Below are positions 12,880-28,920 of a stretch of DNA of 33,086 bases, one piece after another. Numbering within the stretch: position 1 is the stretch's first letter; each line of letters starts with the position of its first letter. The notes under the pieces were generated by a model. That model had not been told where the DNA came from, searched no databases, and saw only the letters and a program-made list of their open reading frames with translations. Where the stretch lies: the IMG/VR virus record IMGVR_UViG_2541047931_000005, positions 1 through 33,086 of that record; one strand, 5' to 3'. A program made the translations under genes and the position numbers. The DNA comes from a virus (lineage: Duplodnaviria > Heunggongvirae > Uroviricota > Caudoviricetes).

Positions 12880-14356
12880 TAACTTGAGCGACGAAGAGCA
12901 AATCGAATTGCTCGAGCTACTCGAAGAAGAAGAGAACTACCGGAACACACACCTGCTATATGAATTTACGCCATACAGCAAACAGCGTGAGTTCATCGAC
13001 GCCGGGCATGACTATCCAGAGCGCTGTTTTATGGCTGGTAACCAGCTTGGTAAGTCATTTACTGGTGCTGCTGAAGTCGCGTTTCACCTTACCGGGCGTT
13101 ATCCGGGCACAAAAGGCTATCCTGCTGATGGTAAATATGGCGGTGAGTGGAAAGGTAAGCGTTTCTATGAGCCTGTTGTCTTCTGGATTGGCGGCGAGAC
13201 AAACGAGACGGTAACCAAAACGACTCAACGCATCCTGTGCGGTCGTATTGAAGAGAATGATGAGCCGGGCTACGGTTCAATACCGAAAGAGGACATCATT
13301 AGCTGGAAGAAGTCTCCTTTCTTTCCGAACCTTGTTGATCATCTTCTGGTTAAGCATCACACGGCTGATGGCGTTGAAGATGGCATTTCAATCTGCTACT
13401 TCAAACCATACTCGCAAGGCCGCGCTCGCTGGCAGGGTGACACAATCCATGGCGTGTGGTTTGACGAAGAGCCGCCATACAGCATTTATGGCGAAGGGCT
13501 TACCCGTACCAACAAATACGGGCAATTCTCAATTCTGACGTTTACCCCGCTGATGGGGATGTCTGACGTTGTTACCAAGTTCCTGAAGAATCCCAGCAAG
13601 TCGCAGAAAGTGGTCAACATGACCATCTATGACGCTGAGCACTACACCGACGAGCAGAAAGAGCAAATCATCGCATCCTATCCTGAGCATGAGAGAGAGG
13701 CGCGTGCTCGCGGTATTCCTACGATGGGTAGTGGTCGAATCTTCCAGATACCGGAAGAGACGATTAAGTGTCAGCCGTTCGAGTGTCCTGATCACTTCTA
13801 CGTAATTGGCGGGATGGATTTCGGATGGGATCACCCACAGGCGCAGGTTCAGCTTTGGTGGGATAAGGACGCAGACATAATCTACCTTTCACGCGTTTGG
13901 AAGGCGAAAGAAAAGACAGCCGTTCAGGCGTGGGGAGCTGTTAAACCATGGGCGCATAAAGTGCCAACCGCATGGCCTCATGACGGAAACCAGCACGAGA
14001 AGGGCGGCGGTGAGCAGCTCAAAGGGCAGTATGCGGACGCTGGATTTATGATGTTGCAGGAGCATGCGACATGGCCTGATGGCGGTAACGCTGTTGAGCC
14101 TGGCATCACTGAATTGCGAGACATGATGCTCGACGGTCGCTTCAAAGTATTCAACACCTGTGAGCCATTCTTTGAGGAGTTCCGCCTCTATCACCGTGAT
14201 GAAAACGGGAAAATCGTCAAGCTTAACGATGACGTTCTCTCCGCCGTTCGCTATGCATACATGATGCGCCGCTTCGCAAAAATGATGCGCGACATCAAAA
14301 AACCAAAAGAGAAAAAGATACCAGCCCCAATCAGGCCAATCGCACGGAGAACTTAA
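12857..14356 (+). CDS. Terminase large subunit (P22 gp2-like)
   Basis: 499 aa, same length as P22 gp2; Walker A-like GNQLGKSF; overlaps the terS 3' end. Confidence 0.95.
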
Positions 14357-22779: not shown

Positions 22780-24246
22780 ATGGCTACTTGGCAAGGAACA
22801 AATGGCGGATTGTTGGCTGGTATCGGTGGTGTCAACTCAAACGCTCCGAGCGTAAATGACATCGGCAATACGCTTCAGCTTATCAGGCAGAACAATGATA
22901 TTGAGCGTTCAGGCGCTAACAATGTTGGGCTGACTGCTTTGCAAGGCCTTTCAGGTATTGCAGGGGTGTTTCAGCAGGAAAAGCAGGCTCAGCGGCAGAA
23001 AGAATTTCAGCAGGCGTACGCTAATGCTTATGCGTCTGGTGATCGCGGTGCTTTGCGTCAGTTGGCTACTCAATATCCAGACCAGATTGAATCTGTTCGC
23101 AAAGGCATGGGATTCATTGATGAAGACCAGCGCAATTCTATCGGCACCTTAGCGGCTGGCGCACGCCTTGCGGCCTCGTCTCCAGAAGCAATGCAATCAT
23201 GGCTGCAAAACAACGCCAAGGAACTGACTCGCGTCGGTGTTGACCCTAATAACGTTGCTCAGATGTATCAGCAGAATCCTTCAGGATTTGGTGAGTTTGT
23301 TGATCACCTTGGGATGGCTGCTCTTGGTCCGATTGATTACTTCAATGTTCAGGACAAGATGGCTGGTCGTGAGATTGACCGAGGCAGACTGGCAGAGACA
23401 ATCCGCAGCAATCAGGCTGGTGAAGCACTTCAGGCGAGAGGGCAGGATATTAGCCGAGCAAATGCGTTAACGTCAGCATATGCACCAACAGCCGCAATGC
23501 AGAATTACAATCAGTACGCGCAAATGTTAAAGGTAGATCCAGATGGTGCAGCGGCATTTGCGGCAGCGGCGGGAATTAATCCCAATGCTAAGAAATTACT
23601 TAAGGTTGAAACCAATCCTGATGGCTCGGTAACTAAGTATTACACCGATGGCAGCGAGGAAGCCGGAAAACTAAACCAACCTATATCTGGTGATGGCATT
23701 AAACCAATTAGCTTGCCACAAGCGCAAAGCATCATAGATAAGGCTAATGAGGGTTCCAAGAAGGCGGCGGGATTTGCTTTGCGATTAAAAGATTCAATGG
23801 ACTCAATGAATCAGCTTAGTAAAAGCATTGACCCTAAGCGAGTTGCATTAATAAATCGCTCTCTTGGTGATGGAACTATTGCAAATTTAAGCCTATCACC
23901 AGCGGAGCAGCAATATATGGTAAATGCGAGAGACGCCTTGTATGCAATTTTGCGCCCAGAAACAGGTGCAGCAATTACTCTGCCAGAGATGCAGGAGTAT
24001 TCCAAAATGTACCTCCCTCAGCCCGGTGATTCCAAGGCTGCTACTGAAACAAAAATGCGAAAAATGCAGGGCCAATATAACTCATTACGTGGTCAGTCTG
24101 GTCGCGTTTATGATGCTTTGGTGGTTTCAAGTGCTGCAAATAGTCAACAACAGAGCAATAGCCAACAACCGACAAATACCCAACAGCAGCAGAGTCAATC
24201 CGGATCATATACCTCAAAATCAGGCATTCAATTTACGGTGGAATGA
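22780..24246 (+). CDS. Ejection protein (P22 gp20-like)
   Basis: 488 aa, canonical position. Confidence 0.8.
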
Positions 24247-26084
24247 TGAAAGTAACTGCAAACGGTAAGACATTTACCTTTCCTGATGGTACGAGCACCG
24301 AAGATATTGGCACCGCCATTGATGAGTATTTTGCTGGTCAGGCTGTTCAGCAACAAACAGTTAATCAGGCCAATAATGCACCAACACGGGAAGAACCATC
24401 ATTGATGCAACAAGCTGGCGATTGGCTCACTGGTGGTCAAAGTGCAGAGCAAATTGCAGAACAGGCTGGTCGTGGTCTGGTAAACATACCATTTGACGTA
24501 TTGCAGGGTGGCGCAAGTCTGATTAATGCAATCAGTCAGGGGCTTGGTGGACCCAAGGTTTTGGATGATGTTTATCGTCCAGTAGACAGACCGACAGACC
24601 CCTACGCACAAGCCGGTGAAACAATTGGTGGGTATTTAGTTCCAGGAGTTGGAACGGCAGGAAGCATGGCTATTGGATCACTGGCAGAGGCCGCAAATCA
24701 GAAAGGCGATTTCGCACAAAATGCAGCTAAAAATGCCGGAGTTAACCTTGCCGCTCAGGGTGTTCTTTCCGCCGCAGCAAAGGGAATAGGGCGTGGAATA
24801 ACGGCTATAAAAGGTGATATTGCGCCAGAAGTGGCGAAGAAAATTGCCACATCAGAATCGATGGGCGTGACACCAATGACATCTGATGTTATCCCGCCGA
24901 AAAATGCTTTCACTCGCGGCCTTACTCAGGATGCCGAGGGGGCTTTGCTCGGGACAGGCTCAAAGCGAGCGGAGCAATATGCAACGCGTAGTAAGCTGGT
25001 AAGTAATTATTTTGACCGTTTTGGTGAGTACAACCCTGATGATGTGGTGAAATCTCTGACCACCACGTTAAGGGGGAGGAAGGATGCCGCTGGCGCTGTT
25101 ATCAATGACGTCACCAATAAAATGGGTAATGCCGCAGTTGATACCACAAATACCATGAATGCTCTGAATACAGCGATCGCAAGACAGGAACGACTTGGGA
25201 CGTCTGCCAATCAAAGCCTGCTTACATCCTTGCGTAACCTACGTGAAGAATTAGCAAACCCTGCAACTGATTTGGATGTTACGTTTGATCTCTTGCGTCA
25301 GCACAGAACAGCATTTAGATCTAATGTTCAGGGAGATGCTATGGTCTTCCCCAACCAGGCAAAAGCAGCTACCAATATGGTAGAGAATGCAATGTCAAAA
25401 GACCTTCGTAACGCAGTTGCTAAAAACCTCGGTGCATCAGACGCAGCAAAATACCTTAAAGCAAATTCCGATTATGCAAACGTTTATAATAAGGTGCTTA
25501 ATAAAAACATTGCTAACAAACTCAACAAGGCAAGCAGTGAAGCCAGTCCTGAACTTATAAATACCGTTGTATTAAGCAGAAAACCATCTGACGTGAAACG
25601 AATCTGGAGCGCACTGGATGATAAAGGGAAAGATGCTATGCGTGCAGCTTACGTCAGCAAAATAGCGGAAAAGGCCGGTGACTCTCCAGCCAAGTTCATC
25701 ACTGAAGTTAATAAGCTGAAATCTCAGTCAGGCGGTGAAATTTACAACACTATTTTTTCTGGAAAGCACATGAAAGAACTTGATGCTCTTCATGAAGTTC
25801 TGCAGCAAACAGCAAGGTCAGACACCGCAAATGTAGTAACTCAGACGGGGCAATCGCAAGCCAACAGGATAAGGACGATTGGCGCAACTGCGACTCTTGG
25901 CGTATCAATGGGGCTTGAGGCTGGTTTCGGTGCAATGATGCGCTTGTATGAGTCCAAAGCAGCAAGGAATGCGCTCTTACGTCTGGCAAACACCAAAGCA
26001 GGAACACCAGCCTATGAAAGAGCGTTGAGTAACGCTGCAAATGCCATCAGGCCGCTGCTTGCTACTGAGGCAACACAGCAGTAA
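24243..26084 (+). CDS. Ejection protein (P22 gp16-like)
   Basis: 613 aa, canonical position; last gene of the rightward virion block before the accessory region. Confidence 0.8.
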
Positions 26085-26108: not shown

Positions 26109-26498
26109 TTAACATTTTCTTTTTACTTTTCCAACAAAAGCTTTGGTTGAATCCATATTCCCATAACCAGAAATGGTTTTTGACATTAAAACTGTTCCAG
26201 TAGGATGTATTACCCATGAGTCGATAACGCGTTGAGTTTCGCCATTCGCGCCGATTCCTATGATGGAGTTTTTAGACAATGCTTTGTAAGCCATGCCGCC
26301 CGCATCTGTCCCAGAATATGTGATGCTGGCATCTTCACCGCTTGTCTTAATGATGAATGTTCCACTAAAACCATCTTCTTCCGGATGGAAATTATTTCGT
26401 TCTGAATAGCTTATTCCGCGCATATCTCCAACGACCCAGCACTCTGCTGTAGCCCCAAAAGATATGAATAAGAACATAGCAGCAAGAAATTGCTTCAC
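26109..26498 (-). CDS. Small secreted (Sec signal peptide) protein of unknown function
   Basis: GTG start at 26498 preceded by AAGGAG; N-terminus KQFLAAMFLFISFGATA then ECWVV... (predicted cleavage after ATA); about 110-aa mature protein with Cys near both ends. Confidence 0.55.
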   Translation of the reverse strand: MKQFLAAMFLFISFGATAECWVVGDMRGISYSERNNFHPEEDGFSGTFIIKTSGEDASITYSGTDAGGMAYKALSKNSIIGIGANGETQRVIDSWVIHPTGTVLMSKTISGYGNMDSTKAFVGKVKRKC

Positions 26499-26528
26499 AC
26501 CAAGCTCCTTAGTTTTGAGCAGGATACC

Positions 26529-26894
26529 ATGAAAAAAGTTAACATTGGAAACGTACCAAAGATGCTCGTTCCGCTCTTTGAGAGCGGTACAATTGTGTTT
26601 TGTAGAGACTTTCCAGAATGGCAACGCCTGCATCAAAAACTTGGCGTTGACGTGCATGACTCGGACGCCAACGGAGCGTCTCATACAATGAGCAGCGAGA
26701 ATGGTGTTTTGCATGTGATAGGCGTGTTCAATGGCAAACTATCTACTATTGCCCATGAGTGCGCTCACATGGCATTCGATATCTGCTCAAGGGTCGGTGT
26801 TGATGTTGAACCAGGAAGAGCCAATGAGACTTACTGCTACTTAATGAGCAGGCTTGTTGAGTTCTGCGAGCGACATATCAAAAAGCCGGAGTGA
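26529..26894 (+). CDS. HExxH-motif protein (putative zinc-metallopeptidase-like), unknown family
   Basis: 121 aa from ATG 26529; HECAH at 26754-26768; divergently arranged with the secreted-protein gene. Confidence 0.6.
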   Translation: MKKVNIGNVPKMLVPLFESGTIVFCRDFPEWQRLHQKLGVDVHDSDANGASHTMSSENGVLHVIGVFNGKLSTIAHECAHMAFDICSRVGVDVEPGRANETYCYLMSRLVEFCERHIKKPE

Positions 26895-26901
26895 CCCGGC
26901 T
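26879..26901 (-). terminator. Hairpin terminator for the small minus-strand gene (overlaps the HExxH gene 3' end)
   Basis: Minus strand AGCCGG-GUCACU-CCGGCU followed by UUUUU. Confidence 0.5.
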
Positions 26902-26907
26902 TGAGTA

Positions 26908-27087
26908 TTACTTTTTGCTGTCTGGAGTTCGCTTATCCAATACCCAGCCATGACCTGGCTTTGTTGTTGGTGGAAGCCTTTCGTTGTCCTTGACGGTTGC
27001 AAAATTGTCTTTCTTACCGCCGCGTGGGCCAACTTCTTGGTATATTCCGCCGTTTTTTCCTGTGTTTTCACCTGGTTTTTTCGCCAT
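26908..27087 (-). CDS. Small basic glycine-rich protein (59 aa), unknown function
   Basis: MAKKPGENTGKNGGIYQEVGPRGGKKDNFATVKDNERLPPTTKPGHGWVLDKRTPDSKK; ATG at 27087 with GAGG RBS 6 nt upstream. Confidence 0.5.
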   Translation of the reverse strand: MAKKPGENTGKNGGIYQEVGPRGGKKDNFATVKDNERLPPTTKPGHGWVLDKRTPDSKK

Positions 27088-27177
27088 GATATACCTCAAC
27101 ATATACCCGTTATTGGGCGATTAAATATTGATCTCATTTTATAAGTAGTCAATATGGCCCAGGTAAATGCAAAAATT

Positions 27178-27203
27178 AACCCACCGTCAGGTGGGTTTTT
27201 TTA
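27178..27203. terminator. Hairpin with flanking A/T tracts (possible bidirectional terminator)
   Basis: AACCCACC-GTCAG-GTGGGTT followed by T7 on the plus strand and preceded by an A-tract. Confidence 0.5.
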
Positions 27204-27234: not shown

Positions 27235-27420
27235 ATGACCATAGAAGAACGTCTGAACAACATTGAGTTGAATCAAACCCTGCTTGACCAGCGACTTTCA
27301 GATCTTGAGCTTAAAGATCTAGATGTGCAAATATCAGAAGCAGAAGCCAAGCTCTCCAGCTTAAACCACCGCAGGAAGCAAATCCGCGACAGAATTACTC
27401 GTGGACGCGGAGGCTGTTAA
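27235..27420 (+). CDS. Small coiled-coil protein (61 aa)
   Basis: MTIEERLNNIELNQTLLDQRLSDLELKDLDVQISEAEAKLSSLNHRRKQIRDRITRGRGGC; AAGGA RBS; heptad-like leucine spacing. Confidence 0.5.
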   Translation: MTIEERLNNIELNQTLLDQRLSDLELKDLDVQISEAEAKLSSLNHRRKQIRDRITRGRGGC

Positions 27421-27497: not shown

Positions 27498-28034
27498 TCA
27501 AACAACCCACCAGTTTGCCTGATTGGATACCAGCCTTGCAGTTTTTATGGAATTAATTATGCCATGCTCAAGAGCCTTGTTAGCATCCAAAATGGTCGAG
27601 TCTGCTATCAGGGATGCCCACCTAATATGGGTTCCGATGTCGATATTGAACGTCTCAACGAAGCGATCAAGATCGTTATCGAGGCATTTCCCGTACTCTC
27701 TCAATCTGGCATGGTCGGCGGCTGGGGAGGCAAAGCACCATAATAGAGGATGTAACAGGAATCTTGATAATGGGTTTGCGAAACGTTCTGAGCCAGCCAG
27801 GAAAACGATATTAGCTATGGATTCAACATTGCTTATGTTGTGAGTTCTAACGGTAACAGGGAGTGACTTAAGAAAGTTATACGCAGTAAAGCCAGCGGCA
27901 GTTTCCCCTCCCTGACTTGATATATGGATATTTAATTCAGTTGCGCCTTGAGATAATGCGGTGAGACAGTGGTTCTGAAGTTGCCCAACAGTGGCAGTGT
28001 TAACGGGGCATAAGAAATGAATTGTGTGCAGCAT
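27498..28034 (-). CDS. ClpP-like (S14 family) serine peptidase homolog
   Basis: 178 aa; ISSQGGETAAGFTAYNFL matches the ClpP xSPGGxxxAGxxIYD region; plausible Ser (ESIAN), His (LLHPL), Asp (ADSTILDA) triad positions; start overlaps the Mnt-like stop (TAATG). Confidence 0.7.
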   Translation of the reverse strand: MLHTIHFLCPVNTATVGQLQNHCLTALSQGATELNIHISSQGGETAAGFTAYNFLKSLPVTVRTHNISNVESIANIVFLAGSERFANPLSRFLLHPLLWCFASPAADHARLREYGKCLDNDLDRFVETFNIDIGTHIRWASLIADSTILDANKALEHGIINSIKTARLVSNQANWWVV

Positions 28035-28288
28035 TATTTATCATCCTTGCCATAAATCTTTTTAAGTGTCTCAAACACAACGGCCTTGAACTGCTCTGCT
28101 TGCTGATCAGCCAAGCGTTCAGCTTCGTCTCGATAGCCTGCAATCGGTGATGGCTTTGAGAGAGCATCCTGAACGATTTGTAATAACTCAGAGTTCATTG
28201 ACCTTCCGTTAGCCTCTGCTCTTAATTTCAATTTTTCTCTTACTTCCAAAGGCATACGGAAGTTAAAGTGCGGATCGTTTCTAGCCAT
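28034..28288 (-). CDS. mnt: Mnt-like ribbon-helix-helix repressor
   Basis: 84 aa; MARNDPHFNFRMPLEVREKLKLRAEANGRSMNSELLQIVQDALSKPSP... closely resembles P22 Mnt. Confidence 0.85.
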   Translation of the reverse strand: MARNDPHFNFRMPLEVREKLKLRAEANGRSMNSELLQIVQDALSKPSPIAGYRDEAERLADQQAEQFKAVVFETLKKIYGKDDK

Positions 28289-28311
28289 GCCATCACCCCA
28301 AGTTAGTATCT

Positions 28312-28569
28312 CTAACTTTCGTCTTTATTGTTGCCATACATGCATTTCAACTTCTCAACATCATGTTCAAGATCTATCAATCGTGATGCTATAGTTGCAA
28401 GGTCTAGTGCTTGAATGTGTTTATTTTTTTCTGTCCACGCTTCAAGTGCCGCGACCATCTCAGCATTTAATGAACGAGAATTAGCCTCAGCCAGTTCAAT
28501 AAGACGTTCCTTTATCTCTACAGGAAGCCTCAGATTCACTTGAGGGTTTTTGTACTTACGATCAGACAT
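28312..28569 (-). CDS. Arc/Mnt-family ribbon-helix-helix protein (paralog 2)
   Basis: VNLRLPVEIKERLIELAEANSRSLNAEMVAALEAW; ATG at 28569 with AGGA 7 nt upstream (alternative GTG at 28575). Confidence 0.7.
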   Translation of the reverse strand: MSDRKYKNPQVNLRLPVEIKERLIELAEANSRSLNAEMVAALEAWTEKNKHIQALDLATIASRLIDLEHDVEKLKCMYGNNKDES

Positions 28570-28586
28570 CGGCACATCCTGAATAA

Positions 28587-28826
28587 TTATTTACCATACA
28601 TGGTCTTTAGCGTCTCAAGTAGCGCCTCTTTGAATTTATCAGCTTCTTGGTTAGCGAATCCTTCAAGTGAGCGAGAGCCATCAAGATTATCAACATGTTT
28701 TTGAAGGATAAGCACGATCTCTGAGTTCATTGATCTGCCGTTTTTATCCGCTTCTTGCTGAATGCGTTTCTTTAAATAGTCTGGAATCCTAATCCCCAAT
28801 GGACTGATATCTCTTGCACCTTTCAT
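28587..28826 (-). CDS. Arc/Mnt-family ribbon-helix-helix protein (paralog 3)
   Basis: MKGARDISPLGIRIPDYLKKRIQQEADKNGRSMNSEIVLILQKH...; ATG at 28826 with GGAGGAG RBS; N-terminus paralogous to the divergent Arc-like ORF. Confidence 0.7.
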   Translation of the reverse strand: MKGARDISPLGIRIPDYLKKRIQQEADKNGRSMNSEIVLILQKHVDNLDGSRSLEGFANQEADKFKEALLETLKTMYGK

Positions 28827-28844
28827 TTCTCCTCCTGCACGCTG

Positions 28845-28920
28845 TGCATAGCTACACAGTGTAGGCAAAAAAATTTTGACTTTAAATAAACACGGTGTAG
28901 TATTTAGTTATCACGGTGTA
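28845..28920. promoter_or_regulatory. Divergent promoter/operator region between the RHH operon and arc-ant
   Basis: Perfect inverted repeat CTACAC-A-GTGTAG (28850-28862) plus two direct copies of CACGGTGTAG (28891-28900, 28912-28921), with TTGACT and TATTTAGTTA promoter-like elements. Confidence 0.5.

Follow-up and report, generated by a model that had tools for sequence, protein, structure and literature searches.

A predicted Hex-family exclusion cassette and the zincin-like gene hkcC share a 30-bp control spacer at the sieA position of a P22-like phage

Introduction

Three described genes come closest to the locus studied here: the superinfection exclusion gene sieA of phage P22, hex of phage 434 and hkcC of phage HK620. 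The locus lies at positions 26,109 to 26,894 of a 33,086-nucleotide stretch of viral DNA (IMG/VR record IMGVR_UViG_2541047931_000005; this whole stretch is referred to below as the window), which represents a P22-like (Lederbergvirus-type) phage or prophage. It consists of two divergent genes, a minus-strand gene for a small protein with a predicted signal peptide and, on the plus strand, an hkcC homologue that encodes an HExxH motif. The name Hex stands for heterologous exclusion (PMC3564112). A lambda-imm434 lysogen of S. Typhimurium needs hex to exclude superinfecting P22, and hex mutants do not exclude it (Susskind and Botstein 1980, as cited in PMC3564112). For sieA, 85 bp of upstream sequence are enough for full exclusion in single copy (Leavitt et al., PMC10883804). 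The junction between genes 16 and 9, where the locus lies, is an exclusion locus in other relatives as well, through SieA (PMC10883804) and through the STnc6030 antisense RNA of BTP1 (PMC7067206). The epsilon34 genome paper lists hkcC and its neighbour orf59a as P22 'ant moron' genes of unknown function, in a region of rapid flux (PMC2629481).

An original prediction, made from the letters of the window, described the two genes as a divergent pair whose families it did not recognise. Both families already have names, Hex (phrog_2651) and hkcC (phrog_1365). We propose that the two genes, a Hex-family exclusion cassette and an hkcC zincin, are independent and have nothing in common but a control spacer of 30 bp, and consider this account probable.

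The Minus-Strand Gene Encodes a Predicted Secreted Protein of the Hex Family

The link to Hex came from the mature part of the minus-strand product, which was used as a tblastn query at a permissive threshold. It matched Sf6 gp38 and 434 Hex ('repressor protection protein') with 28% identity across the whole mature length, at an E-value (0.04) that is weak on its own. Profile alignment of the secreted protein family with 434 Hex by hhalign gave a probability of 98.2% (E 4e-14, 128 columns), and the signal peptide and the ECW(V/I)V, TW.I and STK.FVG.V..C motifs all line up. Both proteins match phrog_2651 (E 9e-61 for the window protein, 1.4e-58 for 434 Hex), a PHROG without assigned function. 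Judged by these alignments, the secreted protein is a distant homologue of phage 434 Hex and of gp38 from the Shigella phage Sf6. The Hex-family genes of 434 and Sf6 lie directly downstream of cI, in the position of rexAB; in the window the gene lies between gene 16 and hkcC. Location downstream of cI is a positional trait and no requirement for homology. Superinfection exclusion, which the original prediction had raised as one candidate role, is now better founded for the secreted protein because it is a homologue of 434 Hex. The strongest evidence for this role is that 434 hex, the one relative with a genetic phenotype, excludes P22, the phage type that carries the window gene in its sieA slot.

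Other searches yielded no further assignment. The secreted protein had no significant match in Pfam, NCBIfam, PADLOC or the PDB sequences, and a PDB search with the family profile returned sub-threshold matches that we regard as noise. The anti-phage defence models of PADLOC matched neither of the two proteins at E<=1, and a Foldseek comparison with viral models gave no match at E<=0.001. The family models of MliC/PliC lysozyme inhibitors and Rap1a immunity proteins did not match the secreted protein either.

The best start of the gene is a GTG with AAGGAG 6 nt upstream, and many database homologues are likewise called at 129 amino acids (aa). A 201-aa version that extends to position 26714 was rejected, since the added codons come from a frame that happens to be open antisense to the neighbouring gene; the sieA gene of P22 shows the identical artefact. 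The N-terminus, MKQFLAAMFLFISFGATA followed by ECW, starts with a basic n-region that leads into a hydrophobic core, and positions -3 and -1 hold small residues. By inspection it reads as a signal peptidase I substrate (MK-QFLAAMFLFISFG-ATA, cleaved ahead of Glu), with a core of 10-15 residues. A lipoprotein reading was ruled out: there is no lipobox, because Glu stands at -1 of the Cys. As had been noted from the sequence (a mature protein of about 110 aa with Cys near both ends), the predicted mature part has 111 aa, the second of which is Cys20 and the last Cys129. Among homologues Cys20 is invariant, and a Cys stands at or next to the C-terminus in all full-length sequences. Their signal peptides have unrelated hydrophobic cores and keep the small residues at -3 and -1 followed by (E/S)CW. 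An 87%-identical allele differs from the window gene by an exchanged signal-peptide region, and pairwise comparison of the mature parts gives a ratio of nonsynonymous to synonymous substitution rates (dN/dS) of about 0.2. The mature protein is therefore under purifying selection, and the gene is a real gene rather than a chance open reading frame (ORF).

The AlphaFold2 (AF2) model of the secreted protein (predicted local distance difference test, pLDDT, 85) is all-beta, with nine beta-strands after the signal helix; residues 1-18 form a low-confidence helix apart from the barrel. An eight-strand outer-membrane barrel of the OmpX/NspA/OmpW/PagP type, which would span the membrane with its strands, end in an aromatic beta-signal and have some 150 residues or more, was considered and rejected. 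The protein is more likely a soluble periplasmic barrel, since it has 111 mature residues, many of them polar, and a non-aromatic KRKC C-terminus. The terminal Cys pair could link the first and last strands of the predicted barrel. In the literature searched, we found no description of a soluble periplasmic beta-barrel that acts against short-tailed phages.

Unrelated Cassettes Are Joined to One Start Codon in the sieA Slot

The slot is exactly the one in which P22 carries sieA, as the original prediction had it. The window is 97.7% identical to phage P22 at positions 26496-27202 in a DNA search, and homology with P22 ends exactly at the shared GTG start codon of sieA. The window protein itself does not belong to SieA (types A, B or C): the alignment breaks at the start codon, the protein falls in a separate cluster, its model is all-beta with one N-terminal helix, and the SieA motif is absent.

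For a census of the slot, we took the minus-strand gene directly upstream of hkcC at 90 loci by a longest-ORF rule and clustered the products. At least 13 unrelated genes occupy the slot, and nearly all encode predicted envelope proteins. A 161-aa lipoprotein is the most frequent (18 loci), followed by SieA (14), the secreted barrel of the window (13), hkcB, which has a transmembrane anchor and a coiled coil (10), and a 75-aa protein with two transmembrane segments (8). Further small transmembrane or signal-peptide proteins occur at several loci each, and a Rap1a-family protein (Pfam E 5e-15) and an apparently cytoplasmic protein at one locus each. In 11 of the 13 cassettes one common GTG serves as start codon. 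It is exactly 30 nt away from the ATG of hkcC, a near-identical spacer (ACCAACCTCCTTAGTTTT..GCAGGATACC) precedes it, and identity stops at this GTG. The cassettes therefore reuse one ribosome-binding site (RBS) and whatever promoter lies in the first hkcC codons. At the opposite end, several cassettes have a short semi-conserved motif like CCA(T/C)GGATGG just outside the stop codon, which may serve in recombination as a linker or belong to a terminator.

In the P22-pbi record, the promoter 'P sieA' (record positions 13861-13891) lies in the first 31 nt of the hkcC ORF, and the mnt terminator lies at the hkcC stop codon. The putative PsieA of the window is identical to it in position and sequence (alignment columns 98-128). 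The 85 bp that suffice for exclusion by sieA correspond to the spacer plus hkcC nucleotides 1-55, and this segment is conserved in the window. It had been proposed that the promoter of each gene lies inside the other gene. For the cassette gene this agrees with PsieA of P22 and with the 85-bp result, but it does not hold for hkcC: upstream of its ATG only 30 bp are conserved, beyond which the sequence is that of the resident cassette. hkcC therefore cannot have a conserved promoter of its own.

The two genes are distributed independently. Among 5,426 complete E. coli genomes, the secreted gene was found in 147 and the window hkcC allele in 131, and the two were adjacent in 21; they were adjacent in 12 of 80 IMG/VR viral loci. 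hkcC adjoins sieA in P22, hkcB in HK620 and at least 11 other cassettes elsewhere. Conversely, the secreted gene stands without hkcC in phage Emek and in E. coli O111; its neighbour is a DUF4065 gene in the first and a lipoprotein gene in the second. In another strain it adjoins a truncated Arc gene, and a relative with 46% identity has a resolvase gene at its side. The 'pair' of the window is just one of many mosaic combinations. In Emek (L003, 1259-2132), the place of hkcC and orf59a is taken by the DUF4065 gene, which overlaps a 161-aa ORF; together they look like a two-gene insert of the toxin-antitoxin type.

hkcC Is a Member of a Large Family of Small Zincin-Like Proteins

Across the spacer lies a 121-aa protein with an HECAH motif, as the original prediction had described. 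It is 98-100% identical over its 121 aa to hkcC of HK620 and to a P22 ORF, and matches phrog_1365 with E 2e-39; named members of this PHROG are HK620 hkcC, the P22 ORF between sieA and orf59a, and SE1 orf64. P22-pbi contains the same ORF, with one residue changed and unannotated, between sieA and orf59a. In the first P22 sequence (AF217253, 37336-37698) the match to the hkcC ORF is 71.9%, compared with 99% in corrected records. This mismatch is presumably due to sequencing errors, which may explain why hkcC is absent from the P22 annotations BK000583, AF527608 and AB362338.

We found 39 DNA alleles of hkcC. As the ORF is intact in all 85 loci examined and the variable sites are distributed 2/2/27 over the three codon positions, hkcC is a real gene; 25 polymorphic codons show synonymous changes only and five show amino-acid changes. 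The third-position bias and the presence of the catalytic motif in distant homologues also rule out that hkcC is kept merely as promoter-carrying DNA.

An exhaustive profile search placed at least 514 clusters (50% identity) in the hkcC family at E<=0.001, nearly all of them stand-alone proteins 110-130 aa long. Among 115 of them, aligned at 23-44% identity to the query, only H76, E77, H80 and E100 are invariant, HECAH being residues 76-80; G49 and Y104 are conserved in at least 90%. In the AF2 model (pLDDT 89), strands come first, then a backing helix and two more strands, and after these the HExxH helix (71-88) and a helix at 100-116. E100 stands at the start of this last helix, 20 residues past H80. 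In thermolysin, the same spacing of 20 residues separates the second His from the Glu that serves as third ligand. The query had no Pfam match at E<=1 and nothing significant in NCBIfam. Comparison of the family profiles with PDB sequences gave no significant match; below the threshold were myroilysin, astacin-type and M35 peptidases. SprT-like and ImmA-IrrE (M78) membership was considered and rejected: neither matched the query, three of the 115 relatives are weakly SprT-like (best E 1e-4), and none matches M78.

From the invariant residues and the model, hkcC is very probably a zinc-dependent hydrolase of the zincin type, outside any described family, and it is likely to be an active metallohydrolase. 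The protein is predicted to be cytoplasmic. As for its substrate, one may speculate about a protein of host defence, a target in host takeover or the product of orf59a. Searches of the literature library for hkcC, orf59a and phage HExxH anti-defence proteins returned no functional study.

The positions of more distant relatives bear on when hkcC is expressed. At 38-40% identity these are ST64T Orf-129, phage L Orf129 and epsilon34 gp70, which are flanked by the lysis genes on one side and, on the other, by the dec/terminase genes, whose strand they share. In mEp021, in Kosakonia and Yersinia prophages and in one metagenomic contig, the relative is on the late strand just upstream of the terminase genes, and in a second metagenomic contig it follows the large terminase gene. 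SE1, ST160, UAB_Phi20, ST-32 and ST-35 have two hkcC matches per genome, the second presumably being an Orf-129-type paralogue near the terminase genes; the window has one copy. In P22-like phages hkcC has the same orientation as genes 16 and 9, and a consensus scan of the window found no plus-strand promoter for it. Transcription from the late promoter runs through the ant moron to gene 9 (PMC2629481). As hkcC has no conserved promoter of its own, has the late orientation and is crossed by late transcripts, we infer that it is probably expressed late, by read-through.

Proposed Explanation and Alternatives

Under the explanation that we favour, a Hex-family cassette would be joined at the GTG to the conserved AAGGAG and to a putative PsieA in the first 31 nt of hkcC. 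The gene would be expressed from the prophage through this PsieA-equivalent promoter, and its product exported by means of a Sec signal peptide. In the periplasm the protein would fold into a small beta-barrel, probably closed by a Cys20-Cys129 disulfide, and would protect the lysogen by excluding superinfecting P22-like phages at the envelope, most likely through interference with the trans-periplasmic apparatus of DNA delivery. It would thereby be a soluble periplasmic counterpart of the inner-membrane protein SieA. hkcC would be a cytoplasmic, minimal zinc metallopeptidase of the gluzincin type that moves as a convergent module with orf59a, with a common bidirectional terminator, and is transcribed in lytic growth by read-through of the late operon from gene 16 to gene 9. 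For the cassette gene, we put a function in envelope-level phage exclusion at about an even chance; what is left beside exclusion, immunity and a cytoplasmic role falls to other functions.

A broader version of this explanation is more tentative. The Hex family, including 434 Hex, may consist of exported periplasmic beta-barrels that exclude P22-like phages by way of the ejection-protein conduit or the wall-degrading activity of the virion, and the sieA slot may be a start-codon-precise exchange site that samples a variety of unrelated envelope exclusion proteins behind a fixed promoter in hkcC. If true, superinfecting short-tailed phages would here be excluded by a soluble protein in the periplasm, and the published model, in which Hex counters RecA in the cytoplasm, would be overturned.

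Several points weigh against our explanation. The exclusion phenotype in the Hex family comes only from the 28%-identical 434 protein. 434 Hex has been assigned a cytoplasmic role, since a fragment of it inhibits the RecA-stimulated autocleavage of the 434 and P22 repressors (PMC3564112). PsieA has a weak consensus and was missed by the consensus promoter scan, so that this promoter is putative. Moreover, transcription of sieA rises on induction (Leavitt et al.), so the two strands are not cleanly exclusive between lysogenic and lytic states. Finally, an allele of the barrel gene directly follows a Rap1a-family gene, which points as much to immunity against a periplasmic toxin as to phage exclusion.

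This last point leads to the alternative that survives best. The 87%-identical barrel allele lies 15 nt downstream of the Rap1a-family gene, in an mnt-Rap1a-barrel operon of many P22-like prophages. The Rap1a family comprises immunity proteins against type VI secretion amidase effectors, and at one locus (L014) a Rap1a gene alone fills the slot upstream of hkcC. The secreted barrel could then be an orphan periplasmic immunity protein or inhibitor against muralytic toxins, such as type VI cell-wall effectors, lysozymes or colicin-like proteins, and give the lysogen a competitive benefit unrelated to exclusion. However, the barrel has no sequence match to MliC/PliC or any immunity family, PhiA ranks only 37th among generic barrels, and the sole genetically defined relative, 434 Hex, has a phage-exclusion phenotype. 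We regard the immunity function as unlikely, though it deserves the first place among the alternatives. T4 Spackle, which acts on the gp5 lysozyme, is an inhibitor of a muralytic enzyme that serves as a phage-exclusion factor. The immunity and exclusion readings thus overlap, because an inhibitor of muralytic enzymes could itself exclude phages. The operon is seen at three loci (L103-L105, 4399-5390) as mnt, the Rap1a-family gene and the Hex-like barrel gene in succession, and its barrel allele occurs in 39 blocks of the index of the sequence collection; two predicted periplasmic proteins would here be co-transcribed with a maintenance repressor.

A second alternative concerns hkcC and its conserved neighbour. 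The orf59a homologue is 98-100% identical to orf59a of P22 and HK620 and matches phrog_3202 with E 7e-31; its match to Pfam YjzC (E 0.0013) is below the cut-off. The gene adjoins hkcC in six of seven diverged loci (two of which, L011 and L012, are one prophage sequence) and is kept in about 68 of the 80 near-identical viral hkcC loci. In siphovirus-type prophages of Klebsiella oxytoca and Rosenbergiella, an hkcC homologue of 60-62% identity lies between the tail-chaperone and tape-measure genes and is followed by a convergent 59-aa gene that is 77-78% identical to orf59a. This is the gap in which HK97 carries the exclusion moron gp15. The arrangement also occurs in Xenorhabdus and Proteus loci and in one P22-like contig; the two stop codons are 4-17 nt apart, with a hairpin between them that has different stems in the Klebsiella and Proteus modules. 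A profile search of genome contigs with the hkcC alignment found only three loci. hkcC and orf59a might be a functionally coupled module in which, for example, the peptidase acts on, or is inhibited by, the Lys/Gly-rich YjzC-like protein, with the two strands expressed in different states of the life cycle. The convergent pair and its hairpin have been retained in these four genera while hkcC diverged to 55-63% identity, and in two virion types (the ant moron of podoviruses and the tail gap of siphoviruses); in P22, orf59a lies on the mnt strand that is expressed in the lysogen and hkcC on the late strand. Against this, the packing is so tight that the linkage could be purely physical, about 11 of the 80 near-identical hkcC loci are without orf59a, and distant hkcC relatives (25-44% identity) have no orf59a nearby. 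Functional coupling therefore seems to us rather improbable. At the siphovirus-type loci (L011, 6001-6563; L013, 6001-6556), the tail-chaperone gene is of the YdaY type, and in L011 a DUF2545/zinc-ribbon gene follows.

The third alternative takes the published mechanism of Hex over to the window. The Hex-like protein would be a cytoplasmic stabiliser of lysogeny, which blocks RecA-stimulated autocleavage of the prophage repressor and lowers spontaneous induction. Deletion of hex raises spontaneous induction of lambda-imm434 in a recA-dependent manner, and sHex, a 61-residue fragment (E43-N103 of a 158-aa ORF) on which the proposal of Shkilnyj et al. is based, blocks RecA-stimulated cleavage of the 434 and P22 repressors in vitro and partly complements a hex deletion (PMC3564112). 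As the window phage is P22-like, a P22-type repressor would be a plausible target. This cytoplasmic role, which comes from the family's only biochemical study, conflicts with predicted export. When 434 hex (L110, 2372-2848) is translated, E43 of the 158-aa ORF is E19 of a 134-aa protein and stands right after the predicted signal-peptide cleavage site. sHex covers the N-terminal 61 of the 116 mature residues, N103 being about halfway along, and by homology with the model of the window protein it would be about half of the predicted barrel. The fragment was purified through guanidine, and full-length Hex is lethal on over-expression (PMC3564112), as is common for secreted proteins. The start site and half length of sHex and the lethality of Hex would fit an exported protein better. 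In all family members a canonical signal peptide at the N-terminus is followed by (E/S)CW, and a Cys stands at or next to the C-terminus. The window gene is unlinked to a repressor gene, and the other cargo of the slot consists of predicted membrane proteins, lipoproteins or periplasmic proteins. We consider a cytoplasmic stabiliser quite unlikely.

The weakest alternative, that of the original prediction, in which the secreted and HExxH proteins form a functional unit with coupled divergent expression (either an exclusion factor and its peptidase partner, or a toxin and its modulator), draws on their adjacency across 30 bp, the one promoter inside the other gene and their co-occurrence in 21 E. 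coli genomes and 12 viral contigs, but it is already contradicted by the distribution of the two genes and has hardly any probability left. The two genes are neighbours only in a minority of cases (21 of about 130-147 E. coli genomes). hkcC keeps about 99% identity next to 12 further unrelated cassettes, one of them sieA of P22, and the barrel gene is found in the absence of hkcC next to DUF4065, lipoprotein and Rap1a genes and near a resolvase gene. Distant hkcC relatives lie beside terminase genes without a secreted neighbour, one protein is predicted to be periplasmic and the other cytoplasmic, and the conserved neighbour of hkcC is orf59a rather than the slot gene. Of that prediction, the exclusion factor agrees with the Hex homology and the metallopeptidase-like protein with the HExxH-plus-Glu signature; the partnership between them and the toxin/modulator pair find no support.

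Layout of the Locus

The features of the locus and its flanks are collected in Table 1. The ORF of the gene 16 homologue (613 aa) aligns with P22 gp16 from residue 1, and the equivalent 613-aa genes at loci L103-L105 match Pfam Phage_P22_gp16. Gene 16 is followed by the Hex-like gene, hkcC, the orf59a homologue, a ClpP-like gene and three Arc/Mnt-type genes, to the right of which lie an antirepressor-sized ORF and the tailspike gene. The terminator between hkcC and orf59a is the one annotated as t_mnt or tORF59A in P22 and HK620. The candidate promoter of orf59a has the same site at the equivalent position in P22, likewise by consensus scan.

Table 1. Positions of the genes and control elements discussed here, in window coordinates.
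Feature	Position	Strand	Remarks
Gene 16 homologue	24243..26084	+	Ejection / DNA-transfer protein; left border of the ant moron
Hex-family (phrog_2651) predicted secreted beta-barrel gene	26109..26498	-	129 aa; GTG start at 26498, stop codon 26109-26111; P22 sieA position
Signal-peptide codons, aa 1-18 (MKQFLAAMFLFISFGATA)	26445..26498	-	Predicted cleavage ahead of Glu19; inspection of sequence
Divergent spacer, 30 bp	26499..26528	.	Both RBSs: AAGGAG (minus-strand gene) 26505-26510, AGGA (hkcC) 26521-26524
Putative PsieA-equivalent promoter of the cassette gene	26529..26559	-	Within hkcC codons 1-10
hkcC homologue	26529..26894	+	121 aa, ATG to TGA, gluzincin-like; HECAH 26754-26768, Glu100 26826-26828
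Bidirectional terminator hairpin, common to hkcC and orf59a	26883..26902	.	Terminator scan
orf59a homologue	26908..27087	-	59 aa, weakly YjzC-like; convergent with hkcC
Candidate sigma-70 promoter of orf59a, TTGACT-17-AATATT	27124..27152	-	Consensus scan only
Bidirectional terminator-like hairpin	27178..27197	.	Terminator scan; separates the hkcC/orf59a module from the remaining ant moron

Some neighbouring features of the ant moron were also seen. A 61-aa ORF at 27235-27420 (plus strand) has a heptad-like pattern (MTIEERLNNIELNQTLLDQRLSDLELKDLD...), lies between two terminator-like hairpins and has no Pfam match. The ClpP-like gene (178 aa, 27498-28034, minus strand) matches Pfam CLP_protease with E 2e-11. 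The start of the gene and the stop of the Mnt-like gene upstream (28034-28288) overlap, a layout that is also annotated in E. coli CE10; a Clp-type peptidase that is apparently co-transcribed with a maintenance repressor is unusual for the immI region. At 28034-28868 (minus strand) stand three successive Arc/Mnt-type ribbon-helix-helix genes of 84, 87 and 93 aa, only the first of which encodes the Mnt C-terminal domain.

Significance

hkcC was already present in the literature, and Hex/phrog_2651 was known as a family. What this analysis adds is that the slot gene belongs to Hex, that all Hex-family proteins are predicted to be exported, and that the cassettes of the slot, counted here in a census, are joined precisely at the start codon. 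For hkcC it adds the invariant HExxH+E motif, the size of the family, the position of distant relatives in late operons and the module with orf59a. A testable function is thereby offered for a gene in about 3% of complete E. coli genomes, and for the 45-year-old, mechanistically unexplained exclusion of P22 by Hex. A conflict is pointed out between the predicted export of Hex-family proteins and the only published mechanism. The sieA position of P22 is one allele of a slot in which at least 13 unrelated genes, most of them for envelope-targeted products, use a fixed set of promoter, RBS and start codon, which makes the slot a ready source of candidate exclusion or immunity proteins. hkcC, which is in P22 and missing from most P22 annotations, belongs to a large family of minimal zincin-like proteins typical of phage late operons, and the tempting reading of the locus as a divergent pair is corrected.

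Comparison with Known Systems

Among described proteins, 434 Hex and the product of Sf6 gene 38 are closest to the secreted protein of the window. They share phrog_2651, the full-length profile match and one layout (signal peptide, (E/S)CW(V/I)V, TW.I, STK.FVG.V and a C-terminal or near-terminal Cys), and the sizes are similar, with 129 aa in the window and 134 aa in 434. Both genes lie in places that are transcribed in the prophage, and 434 Hex excludes P22, the phage type of the window. The two differ in sequence (only about 28% identity) and in context, as hex lies on the PRM transcript after cI whereas the window gene follows a putative PsieA in the sieA slot, with genes 16 and 9 on either side; the published cytoplasmic mechanism does not fit the predicted export of the window protein.

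P22 SieA shares the place of the window gene and has no relation to it in sequence or fold. Genomic position, orientation, start codon, RBS and putative promoter are identical. Both proteins would be expressed from the prophage and located in the envelope, and blocked DNA delivery by P22-like phages is a likely shared outcome. SieA has 164 aa, crosses the inner membrane several times and contains an FxRYPxEAxxFNK motif, whereas the window protein is predicted to be soluble and all-beta, with a cleavable signal peptide. The envelope exclusion morons (HK97 gp15, Cor, Llp, Ltp and T4 Sp/Imm) resemble the proposed function more broadly, as small envelope proteins, expressed from the prophage or early, that stand in a late operon and block the entry of related phages; none of them is homologous to the window protein.

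For hkcC, the nearest comparison is with the gluzincins of the thermolysin type. In both, HExxH stands on a long helix behind a beta-sheet, and a putative third ligand, Glu, follows 20 residues on, in the next helix. The best of the weak structural and sequence matches to hkcC include the zinc peptidase families M3 and M9, myroilysin and astacin-type enzymes. Unlike these enzymes, hkcC has only 121 aa, and no Pfam model matches it.

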